The position numbers were made by a program, and so were the translations under genes. This document shows positions 1 through 40,653 of a stretch of DNA of 59,210 nucleotides, in pieces (position 1 is the stretch's first letter; every line of letters starts with the position of its first letter). The DNA comes from a virus (taxonomy: Duplodnaviria; Caudoviricetes): positions 1 through 59,210 of the IMG/VR virus record IMGVR_UViG_3300035670_000236. One strand, given 5' to 3'. The notes under the pieces are model-generated. The model had not been told where the DNA came from. It worked only from the letters and a program-made list of their open reading frames with translations, and searched no databases.

Positions 1-910
1 CAGGAGGAACATTGTCGCGAATCCAAGTCAGCAATTGTTTTTTAACTTCAATTTCTTTTTTTGCTGGTTTGCCTGGCTCTTTGAGTTGTAGATACTCAAA
101 GTCTTTGATGACTGGTCGATTCTTTGCATCACGATATTCTTTACCAGTTTTAGGATCAACAATGTAAATTGTATTCTCTGGATTATTTAGAATGACGTAA
201 ATGCCGCCATCTACTTCAGCAGGAATACCTTTGCTAACCAGACTGTAAACAGTCTGTGCTGCACCTCTATGTGTGGCTAATAGAATATCTTCTGGCACTA
301 CTCGACTGCGAGATTTGTTATTCTTGATTGCAATTTGATAATTTGTCAGAACCCAACTCAAATGAATGTTTCGTGTTTCATATCCTGCTTTGATAAGCAA
401 TGGAATTGTAGTGTTTAAATCATCCATGTCTTTGAATGTCACATCAAAGATGATGTTTGGTAATCTGCCGGCAGTAGCATCACCTAAAAGCAAATCAAGA
501 GTTTTATCTTTAGCGCCTGTTGCTTTAACTACCATGTGAAGAATATACACATGAGTTGGCGTTTTCAAATTTAAATCGCTAAGTTTTAGTTTTTTGTCGA
601 TTACTTCTTTTTGAATTAGCGCACGATCTCTTTCGTTTAATTTGTCTAATATGGTTGCAACGTTGAATTTGCCAAGCGCATCTAACTTTTGAAATGCCAT
701 CTTAAGTTCGTCAACATCGCGAATTTTAAAATTTTCGCCTTGCATAAAGTGCTTGATAGCAAATCCTTTACCTGAGCCTGCGCCGCCAGCAAGAAACACA
801 GCCTGTCCGTATTTCTTACCTTGATTGTAAAGGATTTGTTTTTCAACAAGTTCATGTGCGCGATAATCTTTCATCGCAGCATATTCTGTAAATGATAGTG
901 TTAGTGCCAT
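1..910 (-). CDS. P-loop kinase-like protein (AAA_33/zeta-toxin-like), runs off the window's left edge
   Basis: Not in ORF track. Hand translation from ATG at 910: MALTLSFTEY...AVFLAGGAGSGKGF (Walker A)...NIIFDVT...IAIKNNKSRSRVVPEDIL; no stop before position 1. Confidence 0.7.
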   Translation of the reverse strand, partial: MALTLSFTEYAAMKDYRAHELVEKQILYNQGKKYGQAVFLAGGAGSGKGFAIKHFMQGENFKIRDVDELKMAFQKLDALGKFNVATILDKLNERDRALIQKEVIDKKLKLSDLNLKTPTHVYILHMVVKATGAKDKTLDLLLGDATAGRLPNIIFDVTFKDMDDLNTTIPLLIKAGYETRNIHLSWVLTNYQIAIKNNKSRSRVVPEDILLATHRGAAQTVYSLVSKGIPAEVDGGIYVILNNPENTIYIVDPKTGKEYRDAKNRPVIKDFEYLQLKEPGKPAKKEIEVKKQLLTWIRDNVPP

Positions 911-4054: not shown

Positions 4055-4495
4055 TCATACAAAGGTCGATTCAAGCCAAAAAACTATCAAAAATATAAAG
4101 GTGACTCAACAAATGTCATCTATCGCAGTCTACTTGAAAGAAAATTCATGGTATATTGCGATTTGAATCCAAATATTCTTGAATGGTCTTCTGAAGAGGT
4201 TGTTATACCGTATAAGTCTCCCATCGACAATCGATGGCATCGATATTTTGTGGATTTTTATATCAAGTATAAAGACAAAAAGGGCGAAATTAAGTCCGCG
4301 CTAATCGAAATCAAGCCGCATGTTCAAACACAACCCCCAAAACGTAAAGATACACCAACCGGTAGACCTACAAGACGGTTTTTAAATGAAGTCGCAACAT
4401 GGGGTGTCAATCAAGCAAAGTGGAAAGCAGCAACAGAGTTCTGCGAAGACAGATTATGGGAATTTAAGATCATTACAGACAAAGATTTGAGATAA
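4052..4495 (+). CDS. gp4: Head completion nuclease gp4-like
   Basis: YKGRFKPKNYQKYKGD...YRSLLERKFM...WSSEE...HRYFVDF...EIKP...NQAKWKAA. Confidence 0.93.
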   Translation: MSYKGRFKPKNYQKYKGDSTNVIYRSLLERKFMVYCDLNPNILEWSSEEVVIPYKSPIDNRWHRYFVDFYIKYKDKKGEIKSALIEIKPHVQTQPPKRKDTPTGRPTRRFLNEVATWGVNQAKWKAATEFCEDRLWEFKIITDKDLR

Positions 4496-9700: not shown

Positions 9701-11620
9701 GGCTTTATGGGATTCACCACAAGAGGTATGGGTGAACTCATGGGTATGGGTAGAGGACAGGGAATGAGAACGCCTGACTTTAATCCAAACGCAAATCGAT
9801 ATCAAATAGCGCAAAGCACGGCAGACTTGTCGATGAACCAAGGCAACCGATATGGTCTTGTTGGTTCAGAAGTTGCATCGGATATTTCAGATACATCATA
9901 CATAACCAGACAAAGTTATGAATTGACTGCCCAAGGTCAACGCATGTCGCTGAATGCTATGAATGCAAGCACTCAGCAAAACGTTTCTGTCACTTCACAA
10001 GCAGACCAAAATAACTTAGCAGGTATGGATGCACAAACTAGTGCAATTGTAACTGCAATCAATTCTCAGCCTCGCGCAACTGGCGGAGGCTCTATGGGAG
10101 GAAGTTTTGGGGGAGATTTTGCGAGTTTCTTAGGAAACATGGCAGTCTCTTTTGTTGCGAATAAAATCACTTCTAAAATTAAGAACCCATATTTAAGAGC
10201 AGCAGCAAACTTTGGTATTCAAGCAGCAGCGCAGAAATACGTTCTTCCTACCATTTTAGGAACTGGAGGAGGTGCAGCAGCCGGCGGAGCAGCAGGAAGT
10301 GCTGGAGTAGCCGGTGCAGCAGGCGCAGGATTCTTAGGTTCTCTTGCAATGCTGCCTAGTGCATTCTCAGCAGCAGGCGGATTTGCAGGACTAGGCACAG
10401 CAGTAGGTCGTTCATTTGGATTCTTTGGTGGACCAGCAGCAGGCGCAACATTCTCTCAATACGCAGCAAGTGTTTTAGGTGGGTCTGGATTTGCAACAGG
10501 CGCCAATTTCTTCTCAGGTATGTCTGCTAATTCTTTTGGTGCTGCCGGTTCTGCATTTGGAACAGCAGGTCAGTTTGGTTATGCAGTAAACCAAGCACTA
10601 CCTTACACAGCAGCAATTATGCAATTGTTCCAAGGAGATATTAAGGGTGCAGCAACAACAGCAGCACTCACATACATTGGTACCGCAATTGGTGGTCCTA
10701 TTGGCGGATTCATCGGCTCTGTTATTGGTAGCGTGTTTGGTAAGAAAAAGAAAGCGCCACCACCAAAAATTATTGACAAAGTTCTTGTTCTTGCTGATAG
10801 AGACATTGCTAAGAAAGCGACCGTTCGTGAAGAAAATAATCCGAGTGATGGTCAGAAACAACTGATTGATGCATTCTTGAATACCGCATTCAATACTGCA
10901 ATGTCAATTTATCAAGTAAGTAAGATAAATCCTCCGTTCAATGCGATTTATATTTCTATTCGTAACGCCAATCTAAAAATGGCATTACCAAGCAACTATA
11001 GTGGAGGCACCATTACAGATGGTTGGGTGTATGAAGTAACTATGGAAGAGAAAAAATCTTCTCAGTTCTATATGCTTGAAATTATGCGTAAGATTCGTGA
11101 AGTTTATAAAGCACAATCTCAAGACCCCGAATATCTGAAGAAAATTGATGAAGGCTATGCTCTTGTTGCAAGTAAGAGTGCGAGTCAACTTGCAGGTGGA
11201 TTAATTGGTAATCTGAAATATGGAAAGTATGCTCTTGACCCATCCGCACAAGGAAGAATGGGAAGCGCAACTAGACAAGCGGTGCAGTCATATGTTTTAG
11301 GTACTCAATCAGGAAGAACAACAGTAGGAACAGGAACGTCAGGAGTTACAGTATCAACACAGACAACTGAAACTGATGCGGGTTCACTAACACCAACTAC
11401 AACATCAGGAACTTCAGTCAGAATTACCCCAACAACAAGCGGTGCTGCTGGCGCAGGCACCTCAGGAACTGGTAATCAGAATGTTAATGTTGTTACAGAT
11501 AATTCTAGAACAACAAATGAAGGCTCTACGATTAACACAACATATCTGAATACAACTTCAGGTGGCGATATTTACGGTCGTTCTGGAATGAATACTGGTA
11601 TGTCATTTGTTGCTGCGTAA
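6707..11620 (+). CDS. Tape measure-like protein with an embedded lysozyme-like domain
   Basis: 1637 aa, Gly/Ala-rich and helical, directly after gp26/gp51; RNNNPGNLR...FARFATPEAG...FISKYAPKSENNT..Y domain. Confidence 0.75.
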   Translation: MAQLGSYAQALGQMASDAAVGGLKGLAQGAKYAAMREMPALTGAMAFAKDVRGRAAKIQDSKTAAAEERQANATEKLVDQQARNNVISLDMARQLRQMNQSIRAQSSLLGYQVQDQKRQMQFAEESERESRNYQERLLKALEKLTTGQGAGAGSPGGGSGGGSEGGFFDSILDWLGTAALGALAGKALGGRGGRGGRGGKLAGLAGAAGSAILGARGLRGLFGARGAARPPSNVIPFPGGGRGGMGGAANDAAFKRPGFWSRLGGKVGSKIGIGALGKRAIPYLGWGLLAYDIYDVVSYMMEDQQSGGMGGGPGGGQGFNAFGPIGALYAATLYKNRNRTAQRPRLEQRPTPYASEGYTLAPNAGRARPGSTTAPRGSRTPGVRQQPGSRPETPATGNNPGMNIPNAPRRNQPLSVRNNNPGNLRYSANLTRPGGVLEGATEGEGGFARFATPEAGMAAMRKQIVLDTQRRGMTLRQFISKYAPKSENNTDKYISDVSRMTGIKPDDRITPDQIPALQRAMISIEGDSRAMAYYYPTTQPVGAEKPAGSTTEAVSAARGPQSSTSYASRGYALGSNARPPGAPTETVSPPTGPVESLPTITVTGRRIPSVERGYRPGMVIPSTGNPRADAYRRHRLIEAGVVPVAATTPSGTAVRGPEEPVPVHDAKATETLEDIKKSQGKVEKETRGLGQNTQQAARLYARRLRSTRRVLTPEEEADEYLKKAQQGFLNAFDRTLTKAFKDFGNNFLKSVGYAPGGRPVTAQEASRTGYAGMQLGKALDLDKKTASALEKVIGKEYSRMLAPAVSQLGKAYLNSLAIGIGQGLFSGTVGAQGAKALTGQIIGNFAKGNKQIAMEQLLFGLTGIASGPETIAQSYGFRSAAEGIGYMAEVFAAKSTNAIQGLFGWEDRTRAQQVRDPTTGRLYTPGEGFTGGVAMPDMERVGYGGMRLPQQPTTTLVGKQDNLLSTGARTLNGVLLVSVTNAGDFASEEDKLKHTLEQGFMGFTTRGMGELMGMGRGQGMRTPDFNPNANRYQIAQSTADLSMNQGNRYGLVGSEVASDISDTSYITRQSYELTAQGQRMSLNAMNASTQQNVSVTSQADQNNLAGMDAQTSAIVTAINSQPRATGGGSMGGSFGGDFASFLGNMAVSFVANKITSKIKNPYLRAAANFGIQAAAQKYVLPTILGTGGGAAAGGAAGSAGVAGAAGAGFLGSLAMLPSAFSAAGGFAGLGTAVGRSFGFFGGPAAGATFSQYAASVLGGSGFATGANFFSGMSANSFGAAGSAFGTAGQFGYAVNQALPYTAAIMQLFQGDIKGAATTAALTYIGTAIGGPIGGFIGSVIGSVFGKKKKAPPPKIIDKVLVLADRDIAKKATVREENNPSDGQKQLIDAFLNTAFNTAMSIYQVSKINPPFNAIYISIRNANLKMALPSNYSGGTITDGWVYEVTMEEKKSSQFYMLEIMRKIREVYKAQSQDPEYLKKIDEGYALVASKSASQLAGGLIGNLKYGKYALDPSAQGRMGSATRQAVQSYVLGTQSGRTTVGTGTSGVTVSTQTTETDAGSLTPTTTSGTSVRITPTTSGAAGAGTSGTGNQNVNVVTDNSRTTNEGSTINTTYLNTTSGGDIYGRSGMNTGMSFVAA

Positions 11621-17491: not shown

Positions 17492-17574
17492 AATTTTCTC
17501 CTAGTCAATTGAGCGAGATTGCTCACTTTTATCTATAGAGTTTCAATCAGTTTTAAACTAAGTCAAATCATGAA

Positions 17575-17883
17575 TAAGTGCTAGTTGATTCTGTTGCCAA
17601 GTTCAACTAGCAAAACTCCGGTCAGCGTTTAGGCTGCCAGTGCAAATCTTTCATCGTTTGCATTTACTTCGTTTGCTTGATTTACGGTCATCGCCTACCG
17701 TGCTGTCCACTCTGTTACTCTTTGCCCTGTCGAAACCAGGTCCGGCCCATCATAAGCATACTCGGAAGATTTATTTACCGCTGACTATTACTCTTCCCCA
17801 GCGTCACTCTAGTATGCTTATGGTGGACCGGGCGGGAATCGAACCCGCGTCCAGAACACTTTTCTCTTTGCTTCATACAGCAA
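17575..17883 (-). ncRNA. ssrA: Two-piece (circularly permuted) tmRNA; outer ends approximate
   Basis: Acceptor piece with GGTTCGATTCC T-arm and CCGGTCCACCA end (17821); paired intervening segment; coding piece starting GGGCCGG (17748, G3:U70); tag ANDERFALAA* at 17661-17629. Confidence 0.92.
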
Positions 17884-17888
17884 TATTT

Positions 17889-18665
17889 TTATTTATATCG
17901 CTTAACCGTATCTATAATTGCATCCTGCACATTTCGCATCTTATAGACAGACTCCAGTTTCTTGGTACTCAATACACAATTACTTCTTGGTGCTTTTGTG
18001 ATTGCCCTAAACTCATCATCAGTCATCCATTCTTTGTTTAGTGCAAGTGCATCAGAAAGTTTTCTTGTGGTTGTGCTGCCAATATTTGTTACATTGTAAA
18101 TACCATACGCAGGTTTTTTAACAATGAAATGGGTAACACAATCTGCTAGGTCTTCTACTTGAGTTACACTATTTTCTTTGTCGATAAGTTTATCATAAGC
18201 CTCTAGTTTTGTCAAGAGATTTTTCTGAGTTCTATCTGGTCCGAATGGCATACGAATACGGAACAAATAAGACTTGTTCATGTATGGTTTGAGTAGCGTC
18301 TGTTCAAGTCCTTTACATGCACTATAGAATGATGCATTGTTGAAGGTAAAGTTTGGGGCATCTTCTTCCGTAAATTCTTTTTCGTATCCTGTATATACGC
18401 ATCCACTAGAGATATGGATGATTGGTCCGTTAAAATTTTTTTCCAGTTCAAGTGGATATAGAATATTACCTTGAACACATTCGTCTTTGTGTATTTCACA
18501 CGCATCAACGTTTGGTACTCCTGTGTATCCTGCGGCATTAATTATAAACTTAACGCCTCTTGGAATTACATCTTTGTGACTAAGCCAAAGATACTTAAAG
18601 TCATCACTTGACAACTTCTTCGCAATATACTGTCCAATATAACCGTGACCAATCAGTCCAATCAT
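17889..18665 (-). CDS. NAD-dependent sugar epimerase/reductase (RmlD-like)
   Basis: GHGYIG, INAAGYTG.PNVDACE, ISSGCVY, YSACK, PRSNCVL. Confidence 0.85.
   Translation of the reverse strand: MIGLIGHGYIGQYIAKKLSSDDFKYLWLSHKDVIPRGVKFIINAAGYTGVPNVDACEIHKDECVQGNILYPLELEKNFNGPIIHISSGCVYTGYEKEFTEEDAPNFTFNNASFYSACKGLEQTLLKPYMNKSYLFRIRMPFGPDRTQKNLLTKLEAYDKLIDKENSVTQVEDLADCVTHFIVKKPAYGIYNVTNIGSTTTRKLSDALALNKEWMTDDEFRAITKAPRSNCVLSTKKLESVYKMRNVQDAIIDTVKRYK
17890..17897 (-). promoter_or_regulatory. T4 late promoter TATAAATA upstream of tmRNA
   Basis: Exact consensus just upstream of the acceptor piece. Confidence 0.7.
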
Positions 18666-32543: not shown

Positions 32544-33059
32544 TTAAGAGTTTAGAATCTTTGCTACAGAATTGATGATAGCAGCAATTCTGCCGATATC
32601 ACGCAACTGTTCAACTGTATAGCCTTCTTTCTTCAATGTATCGTAATGTGCCTTCACGCAGAAATGACACTTGCCAACAATAGATGCAGCCAATGAATAT
32701 GCTTCAAATCTATCCTTAGTGGTTCCGCCGTGGCTTGCAATAGCATTCATACGCAATTGAGCAGGCAGTCCCTTTAGATTAGGGTCTTCTGCCATTTCAA
32801 CATATGGATACCACACATTGTTTTGTGCCATGATAGCACCAGCAGTCAATGCAGAATTAAACTCTGCACCACTTTCAAACATTCCTGCTTGAATGAATGA
32901 AACCAACTTACCATTACCAGTAGACATTGCTGCGGCTAATGCACAACCCATAGCAACATCACCAGGTAATGTGCTACGAGACATAACAGCATCTAAGTTT
33001 AGTTTTGCATCTTTAGCGTATTCAGGTAACGCTTCTTTAATTTGATCTACCCAACTCAT
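32544..33059 (-). CDS. ahpD: Alkyl hydroperoxidase AhpD
   Basis: LPEYAKD.KLNL, MAQNNVWY, LRMN, CHFCV.AH. Confidence 0.93.
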   Translation of the reverse strand: MSWVDQIKEALPEYAKDAKLNLDAVMSRSTLPGDVAMGCALAAAMSTGNGKLVSFIQAGMFESGAEFNSALTAGAIMAQNNVWYPYVEMAEDPNLKGLPAQLRMNAIASHGGTTKDRFEAYSLAASIVGKCHFCVKAHYDTLKKEGYTVEQLRDIGRIAAIINSVAKILNS

Positions 33060-33451
33060 TTAGTTTTCTCCGCTAGTTCTTTGTAGCCTGCCCAACTTGG
33101 GTGAATGCCATCTTTTGAAAGACGAGTGATTGGAAGAATGATATCGTTATTTTCCTTTGCAACTTGAAAAACATCCGCTTGAATGTTTGTTTTGATTGCA
33201 GGCATGATCCAGAATACTCTATCTGCATCCACTTTGTTACGCATCTTTCGTAATTCAGAAATCGTTTTAACTCCAGCGTGATCATTCGAACCCAAACTGA
33301 TAATGACTGTTTTAGCAGTCAAATCTTTTTTCAAGTAGTCGCGATTCCATTGCCAAGTATTCCAACCACCTTTAGCATATGCGACACACTCCTGCCTTTG
33401 CTGGTGTGTGCCGACTGCAATGCTATCACCTAAAATTAGACATTCTAACAT
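33056..33451 (-). CDS. SGNH/GDSL hydrolase-like protein
   Basis: GDSIA, SLGSND, DGIHP. Confidence 0.85.
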   Translation of the reverse strand: MLECLILGDSIAVGTHQQRQECVAYAKGGWNTWQWNRDYLKKDLTAKTVIISLGSNDHAGVKTISELRKMRNKVDADRVFWIMPAIKTNIQADVFQVAKENNDIILPITRLSKDGIHPSWAGYKELAEKTK

Positions 33452-33987
33452 TAAAGGGTTTCGCCGCCGATTGTGCGATTACACGCACACAATTCACCAG
33501 TCTGAAGTGCGTCAAGAATACGCAAAGTTTCTTCAGGTGAACGACCAACGTTCAGGTTGTTTACAGTAACATGCTGAATGATATTGTCAGGATCAACAAT
33601 AAAAGTAGCGCGAAGAGCAGCCCCGGCAGGTGCATAGAACACTCCTAATTGTTCAATTAAAGAAACATCATAATCTCTACTAGTATCTGCGAACTGAATG
33701 TGCTTAATTTTCTTCAAGTCTTCATGTGCATTCTGCCATGCAAGTTTACAGAATTCGTTATCTGTAGAACCAGTCAACAGAACAGCATCGCGGTCTGCAA
33801 AGTCTTGGAAGAGTTTATCGTATGCTACAATTTCAGTAGGACACACGAATGTGAAATCTTTAGGGTAGTAGACGATAATTTTCCACTTACCCATGAATGA
33901 GTCTTCATTGATATTAAAAAATTGATCACTACCAGGATTTACTCCTGTCACTACAAATGAGGGTAACTTATCACCAACGGTTAACAT
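33451..33987 (-). CDS. ahpC: Peroxiredoxin AhpC
   Basis: YPKDFTFVCPTE, RATFIVDP, GELC. Confidence 0.96.
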   Translation of the reverse strand: MLTVGDKLPSFVVTGVNPGSDQFFNINEDSFMGKWKIIVYYPKDFTFVCPTEIVAYDKLFQDFADRDAVLLTGSTDNEFCKLAWQNAHEDLKKIKHIQFADTSRDYDVSLIEQLGVFYAPAGAALRATFIVDPDNIIQHVTVNNLNVGRSPEETLRILDALQTGELCACNRTIGGETL

Positions 33988-34285: not shown

Positions 34286-34362
34286 TGGTGCCCTTAGTCA
34301 GATTCGAACCGACACTCTACTGCTTTTGAGACAGTTGCCTCTACCTATTGGGCTACAAGGGC
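34286..34362 (-). tRNA. tRNA-Leu (CAA), short variable loop
   Basis: Cloverleaf, CCA. Confidence 0.85.
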
Positions 34363-34364
34363 AT

Positions 34365-34455
34365 TGGTACCTCGGGCGAGAATCGAACTCACATCAGCCG
34401 CTTATCTGGCGCTACGGGGTATAAATCCGCTGTTTTACCATTAAACTACCGAGGC
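34365..34455 (-). tRNA. tRNA with TAT anticodon (Ile-UAU), long variable arm
   Basis: GCGGA-TTTATAC-CCCGT, extended V-arm, T-arm, CCA. Confidence 0.75.
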
Positions 34456-34729: not shown

Positions 34730-36151
34730 TTAAAGAACTTTGTAGCGTTCATCCATGATGGTTTTCATCATGACTGCTACAGGAGTGAAGTTATCGATAT
34801 CTCCCGATAGGATAGGCTTCACAATCGCTGGCGAGAAGCCAGACACTAGCGCAGTACCACTCTTATCGAACTTGACTGGCGCGTTGCCGTAAGATGCGTT
34901 CAGGTTCCAGAACACCACTTGTGGTACTTTGTAACCGGCTGCAACATACTTGCGTTCAATCATTTCGATTGCAGAATTGTCATGCTTTACGCATTGGTCA
35001 AACTGCATATCGGACAGAATCAATACCATTGCTGGCATTTCTTCTTGTGGTACGTTACCCTTAACCGCAACATCAAGAATCTTGTTGAATGCTGCGTGAA
35101 GGTTAGTGTTCATCTCCCACTTAGATTTAACCATTTGGTCAATCTTCTGGTTGATGTTACCCTTCATGTGTACCAACTCTGGCTTGTGCGAGAAAGTTAG
35201 GAACGTGTCCTTGAACTTTCCAGTGTTCTTGTCTGCAAGATACAGTCCCAGAGAGACTGCAACTTCAAGGCAAGAAAGTTTTGTGTTCTTTCCTGCTGGA
35301 CAAGTCATAGAGCCAGATACGTCAACAAGAGGAAGGATGTTTGCATCACCAACATAGTTAGGCAATGCTTCCCATTGCTTTTGAATCAAGTCCATTTCTG
35401 TCTTGTCAAAAGAAACGCCATAAGAGTTGATGCGACCTTTTAGCACATCGTATGGATATGCAACAGATGCATTTACTTTTACAGTCTTGTCTTCACCCTT
35501 TACAAGCGAAGCAACATACTCGGCATACTTTTGAGTATTACGGTTGAATGCTTTCTTGTAACGAGCCGATGCTACAGAAGGCACATGGCTGAAGTTGATG
35601 GAATCCCATTCTTTAGCGCACATGTCTTGTTCTACAACCTTAGTCAATTCGACTAGGGACTTACGATAGAACTTAGGCGACATTCCGAAGAATTCGCGAA
35701 TCTCAACAGCAAGTTTACCTTGACGAGGAGTCCACTTTGCAGCCAAGCCATTACGCTGGCGCAGAGCATCACCAAGCATGGTAAATGCTTCAGACTTTAG
35801 TTCCTTGTCATTGAAGACAAAGATATCGTCCCAACGTCCCAATTCAGGAACTTTACGAAGCAAAGCCTTTGCTGCTTCTTTATCGTTCTTTTCTAGATAT
35901 ACTAGAATGTCACGAAACAATTGGCGTTCACCAGCACCACCACGGGCATCACGAAGCCATGCCGCTACGCGCAAAGCAAGGTCGCGGTTCTCTGCCATTG
36001 CAGCAGAGAATGCTGGAACGATGTTCTTACCGCGGGACGCACCAGCGTTATAGAACAGGTCAACTACAGCGTTGGCAGTTGACTTACGAGCCTTCATACC
36101 ATTTGCGGTACGAGCCTCTTGATTTACTACTGCATTTACAAAAGTGTTCAT
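34730..36151 (-). CDS. DUF2828 protein (Ro60/TROVE-like helical domain + vWA)
   Basis: RDARGGAGER..FR, GRWDD, AAKWTPR, DVSGSM (MIDAS), LSDMQFD, VFWNL, SGFS. Confidence 0.85.
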   Translation of the reverse strand: MNTFVNAVVNQEARTANGMKARKSTANAVVDLFYNAGASRGKNIVPAFSAAMAENRDLALRVAAWLRDARGGAGERQLFRDILVYLEKNDKEAAKALLRKVPELGRWDDIFVFNDKELKSEAFTMLGDALRQRNGLAAKWTPRQGKLAVEIREFFGMSPKFYRKSLVELTKVVEQDMCAKEWDSINFSHVPSVASARYKKAFNRNTQKYAEYVASLVKGEDKTVKVNASVAYPYDVLKGRINSYGVSFDKTEMDLIQKQWEALPNYVGDANILPLVDVSGSMTCPAGKNTKLSCLEVAVSLGLYLADKNTGKFKDTFLTFSHKPELVHMKGNINQKIDQMVKSKWEMNTNLHAAFNKILDVAVKGNVPQEEMPAMVLILSDMQFDQCVKHDNSAIEMIERKYVAAGYKVPQVVFWNLNASYGNAPVKFDKSGTALVSGFSPAIVKPILSGDIDNFTPVAVMMKTIMDERYKVL

Positions 36152-37001: not shown

Positions 37002-37190
37002 TTAATCGTTATTAATCTTTTCTTTATCTTCAGGTAACATATTGCCTTGAAGAACTTCTCCATCTTCGTTTGTTTTTTCTTTGTCTAAATCACGACCAAA
37101 GATTGCATCCCATCGTCTTTCATACTCATCTTGAGTAACGCTAAAAGGTCTAGGAGAACTTCCTTTACCACCATGCCATTTATTGCCCAT
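37002..37190 (-). CDS. Small conserved phage protein (GGKGSSPRP...WDAIF)
   Basis: ORF with SD. Confidence 0.7.
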   Translation of the reverse strand: MGNKWHGGKGSSPRPFSVTQDEYERRWDAIFGRDLDKEKTNEDGEVLQGNMLPEDKEKINND

Positions 37191-37743
37191 TCAGAACTCC
37201 TACACTATGTTGAGGATTATTGGGAGAATGGGGAAGATCGAAAACAAATGTTATTCTATCTTCTTTACCATTGCTAAATGCCCAATGAGGTTTTTTGTTG
37301 TCGAACCAGAAAAACATTCCTGGTTTAATTTGTTTTGTTTCTCCACCTACGTTATACAAGTATTCTCCCTGTAAACATAGATGGTATCTGTCTCTAGTCA
37401 AATAATATGAACCATCATCAATATGTTCACCAACACTATCACCAACGTAAAGTCTGAAAAACGCAGCCCTTGAAGTTTGTTCGATGTTATAACTTCTCAA
37501 AAATTTATGTATCTCTGTATACTTATCATGCAAAGGTGTATTTCTTTGCAACTCAGAATTCTTAGGACTCATTTCAGGACTTGGAACTACTGCCATGACA
37601 AGAGGCATGAAGCCATATGGATTTGTTTCTCCTGCAATGTTTGGATACTCTTTAATTGCATTCCAATCATTAGGATTGTCCAATACTTGTTGAAGTATAT
37701 TTTTCACTTCAACATTGTCGTTGATGACAATAAAATTACTCAT
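37180..37743 (-). CDS. Asp/Asn beta-hydroxylase-like 2OG-Fe(II) oxygenase
   Basis: HID.G.YY..RDRYH, WFDNK.PH, RI..VFD. Confidence 0.85.
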   Translation of the reverse strand: MSNFIVINDNVEVKNILQQVLDNPNDWNAIKEYPNIAGETNPYGFMPLVMAVVPSPEMSPKNSELQRNTPLHDKYTEIHKFLRSYNIEQTSRAAFFRLYVGDSVGEHIDDGSYYLTRDRYHLCLQGEYLYNVGGETKQIKPGMFFWFDNKKPHWAFSNGKEDRITFVFDLPHSPNNPQHSVGVLNGQ

Positions 37744-38402
37744 CGTGGATACTCCAATAATTCCATATCACTCATGTCTTGATAGTTATATCTATCATAG
37801 TAATCATGATTTGACATTCCAATTGGCATAGCATTCATAGCAACAACAATACGATAAGAGCAATGTGTTGGTGAAGTTGAATGAGTAGCCCAAGCAGGAA
37901 ACATCACTAATGTTCCAGGCTTGAATTTAAATTCTTCTTGTGTTTTCAATAAAGGTTCTGAATCAAAATCATGCGGTGGTTGAATAACATATTTTTCGAT
38001 ATCGCTGTTATGAAATACTGTACCACTTGCTCCACCATCAGCATCGAAAAGATGAAATGATCCACCTAAAAAACTATTATGATGAGAATGTTTGTGATGA
38101 AATCCACCTTTACGTTGTCTTGTTGCCCACATGCTAGTGATACAACAATCCTTTTGATATCCCATCAGTTGCATTACACTCTCTGTGCATGAATGAAAAA
38201 ACTCAGTCAATTTTGATACGTTCTTATCTTTATGTAGATTTGCTCTAGTAATTTGCAAACCATTCTTTTCTCTTTCAGAGAGATAAAGATGCTCCTGTGC
38301 AAAGTATCGAACAAGATATTCTTCATCTTGCTTGAAATCTGGATATTCAAATCTCCACACGGGAGTAAAAAACAATTTATGAAACTCTACAGGATTCAAC
38401 AT
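37740..38402 (-). CDS. Putative 2OG-Fe(II) oxygenase
   Basis: FFTPVW, HSHHNS, G.LVMFPAW..H, R..AMN; start trimmed because the track start lies in tRNA-Pro. Confidence 0.8.
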   Translation of the reverse strand: MLNPVEFHKLFFTPVWRFEYPDFKQDEEYLVRYFAQEHLYLSEREKNGLQITRANLHKDKNVSKLTEFFHSCTESVMQLMGYQKDCCITSMWATRQRKGGFHHKHSHHNSFLGGSFHLFDADGGASGTVFHNSDIEKYVIQPPHDFDSEPLLKTQEEFKFKPGTLVMFPAWATHSTSPTHCSYRIVVAMNAMPIGMSNHDYYDRYNYQDMSDMELLEYPR

Positions 38403-38421
38403 CACAAACTCCCTACGATAT

Positions 38422-38499
38422 TGGTCCGGGTGGAGAGATTCGAACTCCCGACCCTCTGCTCCCAAAGCAGATGCGCTAACCAGACTGCGCTACACCCGG
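38422..38499 (-). tRNA. tRNA-Pro (TGG)
   Basis: Cloverleaf, CCA. Confidence 0.92.
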
Positions 38500-38960: not shown

Positions 38961-39077
38961 AACAGGATACGTTTTTAGTGATCTACCATTGATCTATTTT
39001 TCCCTAGTGGAAAAAGTTGGAGTCGAACCAACAACCTCTCGCTTAGAAGGCGAAATATTTTTTGCTGAATGTATCCT
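38961..39077 (-). ncRNA. Y-RNA-like CAGCAA element 4 containing a circularly permuted tRNA-Arg(TCT)
   Basis: AGGATAC-ATT-CAGCAA, anticodon arm, T-arm, loop-closed acceptor stem, D-arm, GTATCCT-GTT. Confidence 0.8.
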
Positions 39078-39082
39078 AAAAC

Positions 39083-39159
39083 TGGTGCCCAAGGCGGGAC
39101 TCGAACCCGCAAGATTTAGTTTCTAAGACTAACATGTATACCAATTCCATCACCTGGGC
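39083..39159 (-). tRNA. tRNA-Leu (TAG), short variable loop
   Basis: Cloverleaf, CCA. Confidence 0.88.
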
Positions 39160-39710: not shown

Positions 39711-39785
39711 TGGTGGTGATAAGTGGTATCGATCCACTCTCCTCGGCTTATGAAACCGGTACGCATCCGTCTACGTCATATCACC
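39711..39785 (-). tRNA. tRNA-Met (CAT), variant T-loop
   Basis: Cloverleaf, ATCGATA T-loop, CCA. Confidence 0.75.
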
Positions 39786-40274: not shown

Positions 40275-40350
40275 TGGCGGTCTTAGGGGGTAACGATCCC
40301 CACTCTTTTGGCGTGACAAGCCAACGTGCGTCCATGAACACTTTAAGACC
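40275..40350 (-). tRNA. tRNA-Asp (GTC), variant T-loop
   Basis: Cloverleaf, ATCGTTA T-loop, GCCA. Confidence 0.85.
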
Positions 40351-40354
40351 AAAT

Positions 40355-40443
40355 TGGTGGGGACTGAAGGAATTGAACCTAATCGCCGACCACTCTACAT
40401 ATTAAGGCAACGGATTTACAGTCCGCCGTAGAGAACAGCCCCC
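40355..40443 (-). tRNA. Non-canonical tRNA-Tyr (GTA) lacking a D-arm hairpin
   Basis: GGGGGCTG/CAGTCCCC-ACCA acceptor, GCGGA-CTGTAAA-TCCGT anticodon arm, TTCAATT T-loop. Confidence 0.7.
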
Positions 40444-40448
40444 AAAAC

Positions 40449-40581
40449 TACCATATAGAAACACTCTGACCAGTGCTTGAATCTGCGGTGACCCTACTCT
40501 TCACGGCTGGTCCTTGCATTGGTCGACATTGGCAAGTATTTCAGTTGTTCCGCTGTAGTCACACAGAATGTTTTTATATGG
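40449..40581 (-). other. Long stem enclosing a ~95-nt insert (processing stem or small RNA)
   Basis: CCATATAAAAACATTCTG...CAGAGTGTTTCTATATGG. Confidence 0.5.
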
Positions 40582-40653
40582 TAGGGGCACAGAGAATCGA
40601 ACTCTGATTAATAGGTTAAAAGCCTACTACTTTAGCCGTTAAGTTATACCCCC
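40579..40653 (-). tRNA. tRNA-Lys (TTT)
   Basis: Cloverleaf, CCA. Confidence 0.88.

Follow-up and report, generated by a model that had tools for sequence, protein, structure and literature searches.

The stretch of DNA analysed here, referred to as the window, comprises positions 1 to 59,210 of the IMG/VR virus record IMGVR_UViG_3300035670_000236, i.e. a 59-kb fragment of an uncultured virus estimated to be 36 % complete, and this report concerns an 89-nt gene on its minus strand (40355-40443) that probably encodes a tyrosine tRNA (tRNA-Tyr) with a rewired core. Matches to baseplate, tail and exonuclease proteins mark the phage as a T4-like myovirus, with a gp32-type protein that shares ~57 % identity with its counterparts in Synechococcus myoviruses and in Pelagibacter phage HTVC008M. 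The tRNA array of the window lies on the minus strand at ~32.4-41.1 kb. ARAGORN returned 27 tRNAs and a permuted transfer-messenger RNA (tmRNA) for the window, the gene at 40355-40443 not being among them, and Rfam added two further tRNA matches. Together, these tRNAs cover 19 amino acids, tyrosine being the sole amino acid without a conventional tRNA.

Architecture of the gene

A first-pass annotation, made from the letters alone, had described an 8-bp acceptor stem followed by a short lead into the anticodon arm, a CTCTAC complementary to a GTAGAG in an enlarged variable loop and followed there by a D-loop-like TGGT, as well as an intact anticodon arm with GTA, A73 and CCA. Reading of the minus strand at 40355-40443 confirmed each of these elements. 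The parts of the gene are given below in the order of the transcript; conservation refers to alignments of 64 or 70 family members, which are described in the next section.

40355-40443, minus strand: whole gene, a putative 89-nt non-cloverleaf tRNA-Tyr(GUA) with encoded CCA; full-length covariance model match of 110.8 bits with exactly these coordinates
40436-40443, minus strand: acceptor stem, 5' strand of 8 nt, partner of 40359-40366
40434-40435, minus strand: linker UU from the acceptor stem to the long-range helix, both positions at least 90 % conserved (64 sequences)
40428-40433, minus strand: long-range helix, 5' strand CUCUAC at the D-arm position, pairing with 40393-40398
40427, minus strand: single G, equivalent of position 26, at least 90 % conserved
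40410-40426, minus strand: anticodon arm with a 5-bp stem and the loop CUGUAAA, anticodon GUA at 40417-40419
40406-40408, minus strand: variable-arm stem, 5' strand GCC, partner of 40385-40387
40399-40405, minus strand: A/U-rich linker UUAAUAU from the variable stem to the long-range helix, five of seven positions at least 90 % conserved
40393-40398, minus strand: long-range helix, 3' strand GUAGAG within the variable loop, co-varying with 40428-40433
40388-40392, minus strand: D-loop-like UGGUC, its UGG conserved and its GG invariant in the 64-sequence alignment
40385-40387, minus strand: variable-arm stem, 3' strand GGC, closing the pseudoknot, partner of 40406-40408
40367-40381, minus strand: T arm with a 4-layer stem (U.U and 3 bp) and the loop UUCAAUU
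40359-40366, minus strand: acceptor stem, 3' strand of 8 nt, partner of 40436-40443
40355-40358, minus strand: discriminator A73 and encoded CCA; A73 invariant, CCA in 69 of 70 sequences and absent in the member from locus L086

Just nine bases, i.e. UU, CUCUAC and G, separate the acceptor stem from that of the anticodon arm, and there is no local D stem-loop between them. The CUCUAC strand leads directly via the G26 equivalent into the anticodon stem, as a normal D stem does with its 3' strand, and the GUAGAG strand would then be the equivalent of the normal D stem's 5' strand. The GG of UGGUC is the likely equivalent of G18-G19 that would contact the T loop, and the UUAAUAU linker might take part in tertiary contacts. 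Of the long, stemmed variable arm that marks class II tRNA-Tyr, a 3-bp co-varying stem is kept, but its loop is tied into the core. The standard model for tRNA (RF00005) stayed below threshold for the gene in a scan across the window, its sole Rfam match being that to the selenocysteine tRNA (tRNA-Sec) model, at 27.1 bits vs a gathering score of 47.

Covariation supports a rewired, pseudoknotted core

Three pattern scans of viral contigs, the third constraining no helix other than a portion of the T arm, yielded 64 distinct sequences that share this architecture. As the anticodon loop was set in the search patterns, the invariance of GUA is partly imposed, whereas A73 and G1-C72 were not imposed. 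Extraction by regular expression required at least six of the eight acceptor pairs and the T-loop motif and missed the members in loci L030, L131 and L156, which were recovered by a covariance model and are counted among the 70 sequences. This model, built from the 64 sequences and run on 190 sources (the window and 189 loci), gave 93 full-length matches of 67.5-112 bits, one per locus. The remaining tRNAs, among them cloverleaf tRNA-Tyr genes whose anticodon arm is identical, reached at most 35.5 bits. The 93 members comprise 92 viral contigs, the window included, and one contig binned in a Rhizobiaceae-group metagenome-assembled genome, and the member contigs span at least 74 dataset prefixes (hand count). 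Among bacterial and archaeal genomes, taken one per species, one of 38 pattern matches was a member; the other 37 lack the architecture and were rejected as chance matches or other RNAs.

The 64 sequences were aligned with MAFFT, i.e. blind to structure. A second alignment of 70 sequences (A2), to which the divergent and cultured members had been added, was model-guided, with the variable stem absent from the model structure; in it, the variable stem of one member (L195) is off by one column and was scored as unpaired. In the 64-sequence alignment, 95.9 % of cells are paired in the proposed structure vs 80.4 % in column shuffles, none of 500 shuffles reaching the observed value, and sliding the 3' partners by one to three columns brings pairing down to 36-63 %. 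The long-range helix is paired in 98.7 % of cells in the 64 sequences and in 99.8 % in the 70, with compensatory changes at five of its six pairs, and occurs in ~15 complementary forms such as CUCUAC/GUAGAG, CCCUAC/GUAGGG, CCCAAC/GUUGGG and CCAUUC/GAAUGG. RNAalifold, run on the 64 sequences with no structure given, returned the same 8-bp acceptor stem, long-range helix and anticodon stem. In the 70 sequences, the acceptor helix (8 bp, with one G.U in the window) is paired in 98.9 % of cells with seven of eight pairs compensatory, and the anticodon stem in 99.4 % with four of five pairs compensatory. U33 is present in the 7-nt anticodon loop, the bases of which are invariant in the 64 sequences except at position 38. 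The T stem has three near-invariant inner pairs and, in 62 of the 64 sequences, a non-standard U.U as its outer layer; a standard outer pair is found in the members from Pseudomonas phages and in L156 (7/70 overall), and the T loop of the family is UUCRAUU, i.e. of the UUCRA type.

The rewired topology, as proposed by the first-pass annotation, is real and strongly supported by covariation in a large family. Of the checks suggested there, the homologue search and the covariation test of CTCTAC and GTAGAG showed that the two 6-mers co-vary across 64 and 70 homologues, with none of 500 shuffles attaining the values seen in either set, and a normal D arm in the homologues, which would have pointed to a pseudogene or an assembly error, was not found: they have the same odd topology. 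The significance of the pairing comes from this comparison, not from the single sequence.

The fold is a pseudoknot because the variable stem encloses one strand of the long-range helix. This 3-bp stem is paired in 99.0 % of cells in the 70 sequences, with two of three pairs compensatory, and occurs as GCC/GGC, GUC/GAC, GCU/AGC and GUG/CAC, the GUG/CAC form in the Lyrsu phages vs GUC/GAC in their relatives SCYZ1 and Rembedalsseter representing a clear separate event. The term pseudoknot, already used in the first-pass annotation, is justified only because the GCC/GGC stem around the relocated strand, which had not been named there, co-varies as well. RNAalifold pairs the G at 40427 with the U at 40409 as G.U in 62 of the 64 sequences; a fourth variable-stem pair, U35-R66, was dropped from the final structure since RNAalifold pairs U35 with G17.

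Distribution among phages

A blastn search of the 89-nt gene against GenBank phages gave no match at E <= 0.01. When repeated at E <= 10 and followed up, it revealed unannotated members in five cultured Pseudomonas phages, i.e. SCYZ1 (P. fluorescens, 74.1 bits), Rembedalsseter (P. trivialis, 83.7 bits) and the P. syringae phages Lyrsu03 (74.1 bits), Lyrsu01 and Lyrsu02, the last two found by blastn only. The Pseudomonas hosts of SCYZ1 and Rembedalsseter are non-pathogenic. A published table gives one tRNA each for Lyrsu01-03 (PMC11256456), and the portion of the Rembedalsseter description considered here mentions no tRNA (PMC11780129). ARAGORN called the gene in none of the window, 30 family loci, L191, L192, L195, L196 and L197, and the Rembedalsseter copy scored 26.3 bits with RF00005 vs a threshold of 29.

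The blastn look-alikes 'tRNA-Pseudo-2' of phage KVP40 and its relatives have a true D hairpin, score 36.8 bits and are not members. The KVP40 gene (L193 1476-1561; record 177438-177519) has the appearance of an intact class II tRNA-Tyr, its D stem being 5 bp long and its loop 5 nt, and an identical gene is annotated as tRNA-Tyr in phages VH1_2019 and V05.

Carriers of the rewired tRNA-Tyr are T4-like myoviruses, contigs of 316-344 kb and LUZ24-like podoviruses of 45-47 kb. Since these are very different kinds of phage, the family is either old or horizontally mobile among phages.

Evidence for a working tRNA-Tyr

According to the part of a 2023 review consulted for this point, the bacterial tyrosine determinants are A73, G1-C72 and the anticodon (PMC9976931). 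GUA and A73 are invariant in the 64-sequence alignment, G1-C72 is present in 70/70 sequences, and the members from cultured phages, which were found by blastn, also have GUA.

The gene content of the carriers points in the same direction. In two near-complete genomes of 344 kb (99 %) and 316 kb (91 %), all Rfam tRNA matches lie in one array each, and both arrays contain tRNAs for 19 amino acids, none of them tyrosine, together with one rewired gene. In both, it is located directly upstream of tRNA-Asp, an order also seen in the window. A conventional tRNA with the GTA anticodon was called by ARAGORN in only two of 30 family loci (the related contigs L044 and L060). The two genes concerned, at 4399-4486 (minus strand) in L044 and 10753-10841 (plus strand) in L060, have the discriminator U and the same body with quite different anticodon stem-loops.

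In the Pseudomonas podoviruses, the rewired gene is located just upstream of tRNA-Pro and the small terminase gene; it is the sole tRNA-like gene of Rembedalsseter, whereas SCYZ1 and Lyrsu03 have two such genes each, including this one. In the related phage TL, the same slot is occupied by a true cloverleaf tRNA-Tyr, which has a GCC/GGC variable stem and whose T arm closely resembles that of the family, and no member was found in the syntenic region of phages tf and phiIBB-PAA2. In TL (L200 622-870), ARAGORN finds tRNA-Asn, tRNA-Tyr and tRNA-Pro upstream of the small terminase gene, none of which is annotated in the RefSeq record; in this tRNA-Tyr, a GUAGA repeat adds five bases between the acceptor stem and the D stem, and the acceptor stem contains two U.U mismatches.

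Predicted promoters of the sigma-70 type precede the gene in three of the cultured phages, with 12/12 consensus matches in SCYZ1, 11/12 in Rembedalsseter and 10/12 in Lyrsu03, ending 20, 22 and 36 nt upstream of the gene, respectively. Contigs from four RNA libraries also bear on the window: one (X16) matches 40326-40429 exactly and another (X17) covers 40365-40444 with five differences, uncovered stretches and small word shares not being counted as evidence.

Upstream of the gene in the window, a 135-nt spacer (40444-40578) separates it from tRNA-Lys. The spacer gave no Rfam match in a more sensitive scan of 40300-40620 and holds no sigma-70-like promoter site. A contig of run X18 joins 40437 to 40579 via 14 other letters, suggesting a relative without the 135-nt spacer.

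Proposed fold and function

We consider it probable, at about three chances in four, that the gene encodes a working elongator tRNA-Tyr of the phage, the core of which is connected in a permuted, pseudoknotted manner, and that the tRNA is charged by the host tyrosyl-tRNA synthetase (TyrRS). In the proposed fold, the long-range helix would take the role of the D stem: its 5' strand would reach the anticodon stem by way of a single G, which corresponds to the path of D-stem bases 22-25 via position 26, and its 3' strand would precede UGG in the way that bases 10-13 precede the D loop and its G18-G19. Because the strands of the helix keep these normal connections, stacking on the anticodon stem and the elbow between GG and the T loop could be kept. 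The acceptor stem would enter the 'top' of the long-range helix through two bases, while the GG strand would come from the variable stem by the 7-base linker and exit by the 3' strand of the variable stem to the T arm. The net result would be a D arm whose 5' half has been relocated into the variable loop, with only the path of the chain altered. The acceptor/T branch consists of 8+4 layers instead of 7+5.

Host RNA polymerase would transcribe the gene, host TyrRS would charge the product by recognizing G1-C72, A73 and GUA, and the charged tRNA would read UAY codons on the ribosome. The host enzyme is the candidate for charging because no phage TyrRS was found; the search (PF00579) was negative in five records and in the window, of which three records and the window are incomplete. 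Two other routes were rejected, i.e. a return to the cloverleaf by an intron or by editing, as no excision restores the segment order, and a prophage att-site remnant, as the acceptor stem has both of its halves and these co-vary.

Several observations weigh against this interpretation. The variable stem has just 3 bp, and its compensatory changes rest on five and three sequences from at least three separate events; the ambiguous pairing of U35 adds to this, and the T stem of most members has only three standard pairs and a U.U. Taken singly, the sequence folds no better than its shuffles (z = -1.01, with 32 of 200 shuffles folding at least as well), and its minimum free energy structure uses a different hairpin, only the centroid containing the 6-bp helix. 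The acceptor stem of L131 is broken, suggesting that some copies of the family decay. L030 is without GG and without the UUC of the T loop, and Rembedalsseter is without GG; as GG is missing in 2/70 sequences, the contact between GG and the T loop would not be universal. In L044 and L060, the rewired gene stands beside a cloverleaf GTA tRNA and is thus not always the sole tyrosine candidate. Finally, the contigs from RNA libraries carry no transcript ends or strand, and DNA carry-over is possible.

Why the topology may have been kept

The first-pass annotation had suggested that the rewired tRNA may evade defence aimed at tRNA-Tyr. Sources consulted in part report that Septu, like PtuAB as the effector of Retron-Eco7, halts phages through cleavage of tRNA-Tyr within the variable-arm stem (PMC13096335, PMC11555353), that the tRNA-Tyr of T5 is said to resist through a distinctive variable loop (PMC13096335), and that infection is rescued from Retron-Eco7 by a phage tRNA-Tyr under a strong promoter (PMC11555353). 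With its D and variable region rebuilt, the tRNA might thus be a poor substrate for such variable-arm nucleases, or for phage-directed attack on host tRNA, which would keep tyrosine decoding alive during infection. A variable loop locked into the core, a gene that is the sole tRNA of small phages and near-consensus promoters would fit an arms race. Escape from anticodon nucleases is not the point, since the anticodon loop is unchanged. The variable stem, i.e. the site of the reported cut, is retained, which argues against evasion, and we regard the idea as plausible but tentative. Equally tentative is the full proposal that this is the first natural tRNA with a topologically permuted L-shaped core, charged by host TyrRS, used by the ribosome and selected by phages of very different kinds as an escape from nucleases that recognize class II tRNA-Tyr, such as PtuAB of Septu and Retron-Eco7. 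If true, it would reveal a counter-defence route at the level of structure rather than sequence, and a ready scaffold for orthogonal tRNAs.

A serious rival to evasion is a neutral origin, in which the gene is likewise a working tRNA-Tyr and all evidence for function applies equally, the topology being an accident: a rearrangement kept the three-dimensional fold by chance and was then inherited and spread among phages, with no role in evasion. The cloverleaf and rewired forms share the same slot in related podoviruses and may therefore be interchangeable. Moreover, the same phages have a class I-shaped tRNA-Leu and a class II-shaped tRNA-Ile(UAU), and since they carry these other reshaped tRNAs, structural drift of phage tRNAs may be common. 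Against pure drift, the topology persists from T4-like myoviruses to the 316-344 kb contigs and the 45-47 kb podoviruses, the linker and GG are highly conserved, and in small phages the gene is retained behind near-consensus promoters as the single tRNA or almost so, a pattern resembling selection in favour of some specific benefit. Overall, a neutral origin is a realistic possibility, even if we would not presume it.

Explanations other than a tyrosine tRNA

A mimic role had also been raised in the first-pass annotation; in such a reading, the RNA would be an uncharged decoy or mimic outside translation that soaks up or inhibits a nuclease of tRNA-Tyr or binds another tRNA-binding protein. 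The weak T stem, with its U.U in 62/64 sequences, would suit such a molecule, and so would the presence, inside the tRNA array of the window, of a gene for an RNA-binding protein that we take to be Ro60/TROVE-like. A decoy, however, would have no need to combine an invariant anticodon loop with G1-C72, A73 and a CCA encoded in the gene; furthermore, the gene is the sole tRNA-Tyr of otherwise complete sets and takes the position of a cloverleaf tRNA-Tyr. With the tyrosine identity elements invariant as well, a mimic role is disfavoured and appears unlikely.

Still less probable is another identity or use, i.e. a different amino acid despite GUA, or an orthogonal or regulatory tRNA like some 8/4 allo-tRNAs. 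The 8-bp acceptor, the 4-layer T stem and the long variable region recall allo-tRNAs and tRNA-Sec as described in the consulted text of PMC5389517, and the best Rfam match is to tRNA-Sec, sub-threshold at 27.1 bits. Yet neither the UCA anticodon of tRNA-Sec nor its gathering score is found here, A73, G1-C72 and GUA fit bacterial tyrosine identity as outlined in the part of the review considered (PMC9976931), and the phage sets concerned contain no other tRNA-Tyr.

A pseudogene, an assembly error or a chance match, as might be read from the rejection by standard finders, the non-significant fold of the single sequence and the broken acceptor of L131, is already refuted by the comparative data, i.e. 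93 copies on separate contigs and five isolate genomes from different groups, helices that all keep pairing via compensatory changes, and DNA runs that cover the stretch at 0.83-0.93 of the sampled words.

Relation to known tRNAs and significance

With class II bacterial and phage tRNA-Tyr, the family shares GUA, the loop CUGUAAA, A73, G1-C72 and the T loop UUCRAUU; it differs by the absence of a local D hairpin, the long-range pseudoknot and 8+4 vs 7+5 layers. Cloverleaf phage tRNA-Tyr genes with the same 22-nt pattern have an identical anticodon arm and a GCC/GGC variable stem, closed around a 4-base loop, and the relocated strand with its UGG resembles the 5' half of the D arm of these cloverleaf genes. 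The tRNA-Sec family (RF01852) likewise has an 8-bp acceptor, a 6-bp D-type helix and a long variable region, but its anticodon is UCA instead of GUA and only in tRNA-Sec is the D helix a hairpin.

Permuted tRNA genes of Cyanidioschyzon have their segments in a non-standard order, and joining of the pieces restores a normal cloverleaf; in the rewired gene, by contrast, the 5' and 3' ends already stand in the normal order. In viral tRNA-like structures, going by the descriptions consulted in part, a pseudoknot lies in the acceptor arm at the 3' end of a genomic RNA, while here it lies in the core of a free tRNA.

The (8/4) tRNAs and allo-tRNAs (Mukai et al., Nucleic Acids Res 2017, PMC5389517) share the 8-bp acceptor and a long variable region, and have been reported in phage tRNA clusters, including those of alpha-proteobacterial phages. 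The 12 layers of their acceptor branch include a 4-bp T stem, whereas the fourth T-stem layer of the family is U.U in 62 of 64 sequences and a standard pair in 7 of 70. As described in the text covered here, they are cloverleaves with a long D stem and a tetraloop and have serine, histidine or other identities, while the rewired gene has no such hairpin; neither 'tyrosine' nor 'pseudoknot' occurs in the main text of that paper, the supplementary figures lying outside this count. D-armless mitochondrial tRNAs, e.g. nematode tRNA-Ser, also have no local D hairpin; in these, according to the portion of a review used here (PMC7609411), the arm is lost and replaced by a flexible connector, whereas the phage gene keeps a 6-bp helix and GG. 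The tRNA-Tyr of T5 (vs Retron-Eco7) and T6 (vs Septu) resemble the family in being phage-borne, with a variable region unlike that of the host and strong sigma-70-type promoters, as stated in the parts of PMC11555353 and PMC13096335 considered; in contrast to the rewired genes they are cloverleaves, and the promoters of the family are consensus matches only.

No description of this topology was found in the full-text literature, a scope that leaves out subscription-only papers and supplements, and 'pseudoknot', 'phage' and 'permuted' are absent from the portion covered of a 2020 review of non-canonical tRNAs (PMC7609411). The cloverleaf is treated as universal outside organelles, an assumption on which gene finders, Rfam and annotation rest. 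The family would be a conserved tRNA that keeps its helices and reroutes the chain, for which the literature searched held no earlier report concerning a natural tRNA. It would explain why tRNA-Tyr seems absent from phages whose tRNA sets are otherwise nearly complete, supplies at least five cultured phage genomes with a gene that had been overlooked, and offers a natural test of the needs of TyrRS, EF-Tu, RNase P, the ribosome and the enzymes for CCA addition and modification.

Other features of the window and related genomes

Apart from the rewired gene, the window phage reshapes the variable arms of several tRNAs, i.e. those for Tyr, Ile(UAU) and Leu. The gene at 34365-34455 (minus strand), labelled 'tRNA-Ile(tat)' by ARAGORN, encodes a tRNA of ~90 nt with the anticodon UAU and a normal D arm, and is also present in L013, L018, L021, L028, L052, L067, L151, L191 and L192. 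It has an extra co-varying hairpin in the variable arm, the loop of which contains a conserved AGATAA, with compensatory changes at 18 of 22 predicted pairs in ten sequences; a class II-shaped tRNA-Ile is unusual. Conversely, tRNA-Leu(CAA) at 34286-34362 and tRNA-Leu(UAG) at 39083-39159 (both minus strand) are just 77 nt each and fold with a short variable region, i.e. are class I-shaped, whereas bacterial-type tRNA-Leu is normally long-armed.

The two tRNAs found by Rfam only are both on the minus strand. One, at 39008-39066, has 59 nt, a score of 30.5 bits and the loop CUUCUAA (anticodon UCU), with an AT-rich acceptor and apparently without a D arm. The other, at 39714-39785 (45.5 bits), has the anticodon CAU and is the third CAU tRNA of the array.

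The tmRNA at 17538-17913 (minus strand) is a permuted, two-piece phage tmRNA with the tag ANDERFALAA, and matches the Rfam models for permuted and betaproteobacterial tmRNA. Similar tags are encoded by tmRNAs in L015, L020, L028, L052, L191 and L192, all of them permuted, and in L144, where the tmRNA is of the standard form.

Within the tRNA array, 34730-36151 (minus strand) encodes a protein of 473 amino acids with Pfam DUF2828 and DUF7788, belonging to PHROG 850 'RNA-binding protein' (E = 1.7e-141). This architecture presumably resembles Ro60/TROVE plus vWA, and the protein could handle misfolded or unusual RNAs. Further genes are interspersed with the tRNA blocks at 37180-38465 and 32544-33987 (both minus strand), i.e. 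those for a cupin/Asp-Arg hydroxylase-like protein, a 2OG-Fe(II) oxygenase, an AhpC-type peroxiredoxin and a CMD-family protein.

Lastly, the near-complete 344-kb virus record (L191) has at 60-134 (plus strand) a tRNA with the anticodon CUA, labelled 'tRNA-Pyl' by ARAGORN, which is a possible amber suppressor in a phage genome of jumbo size.

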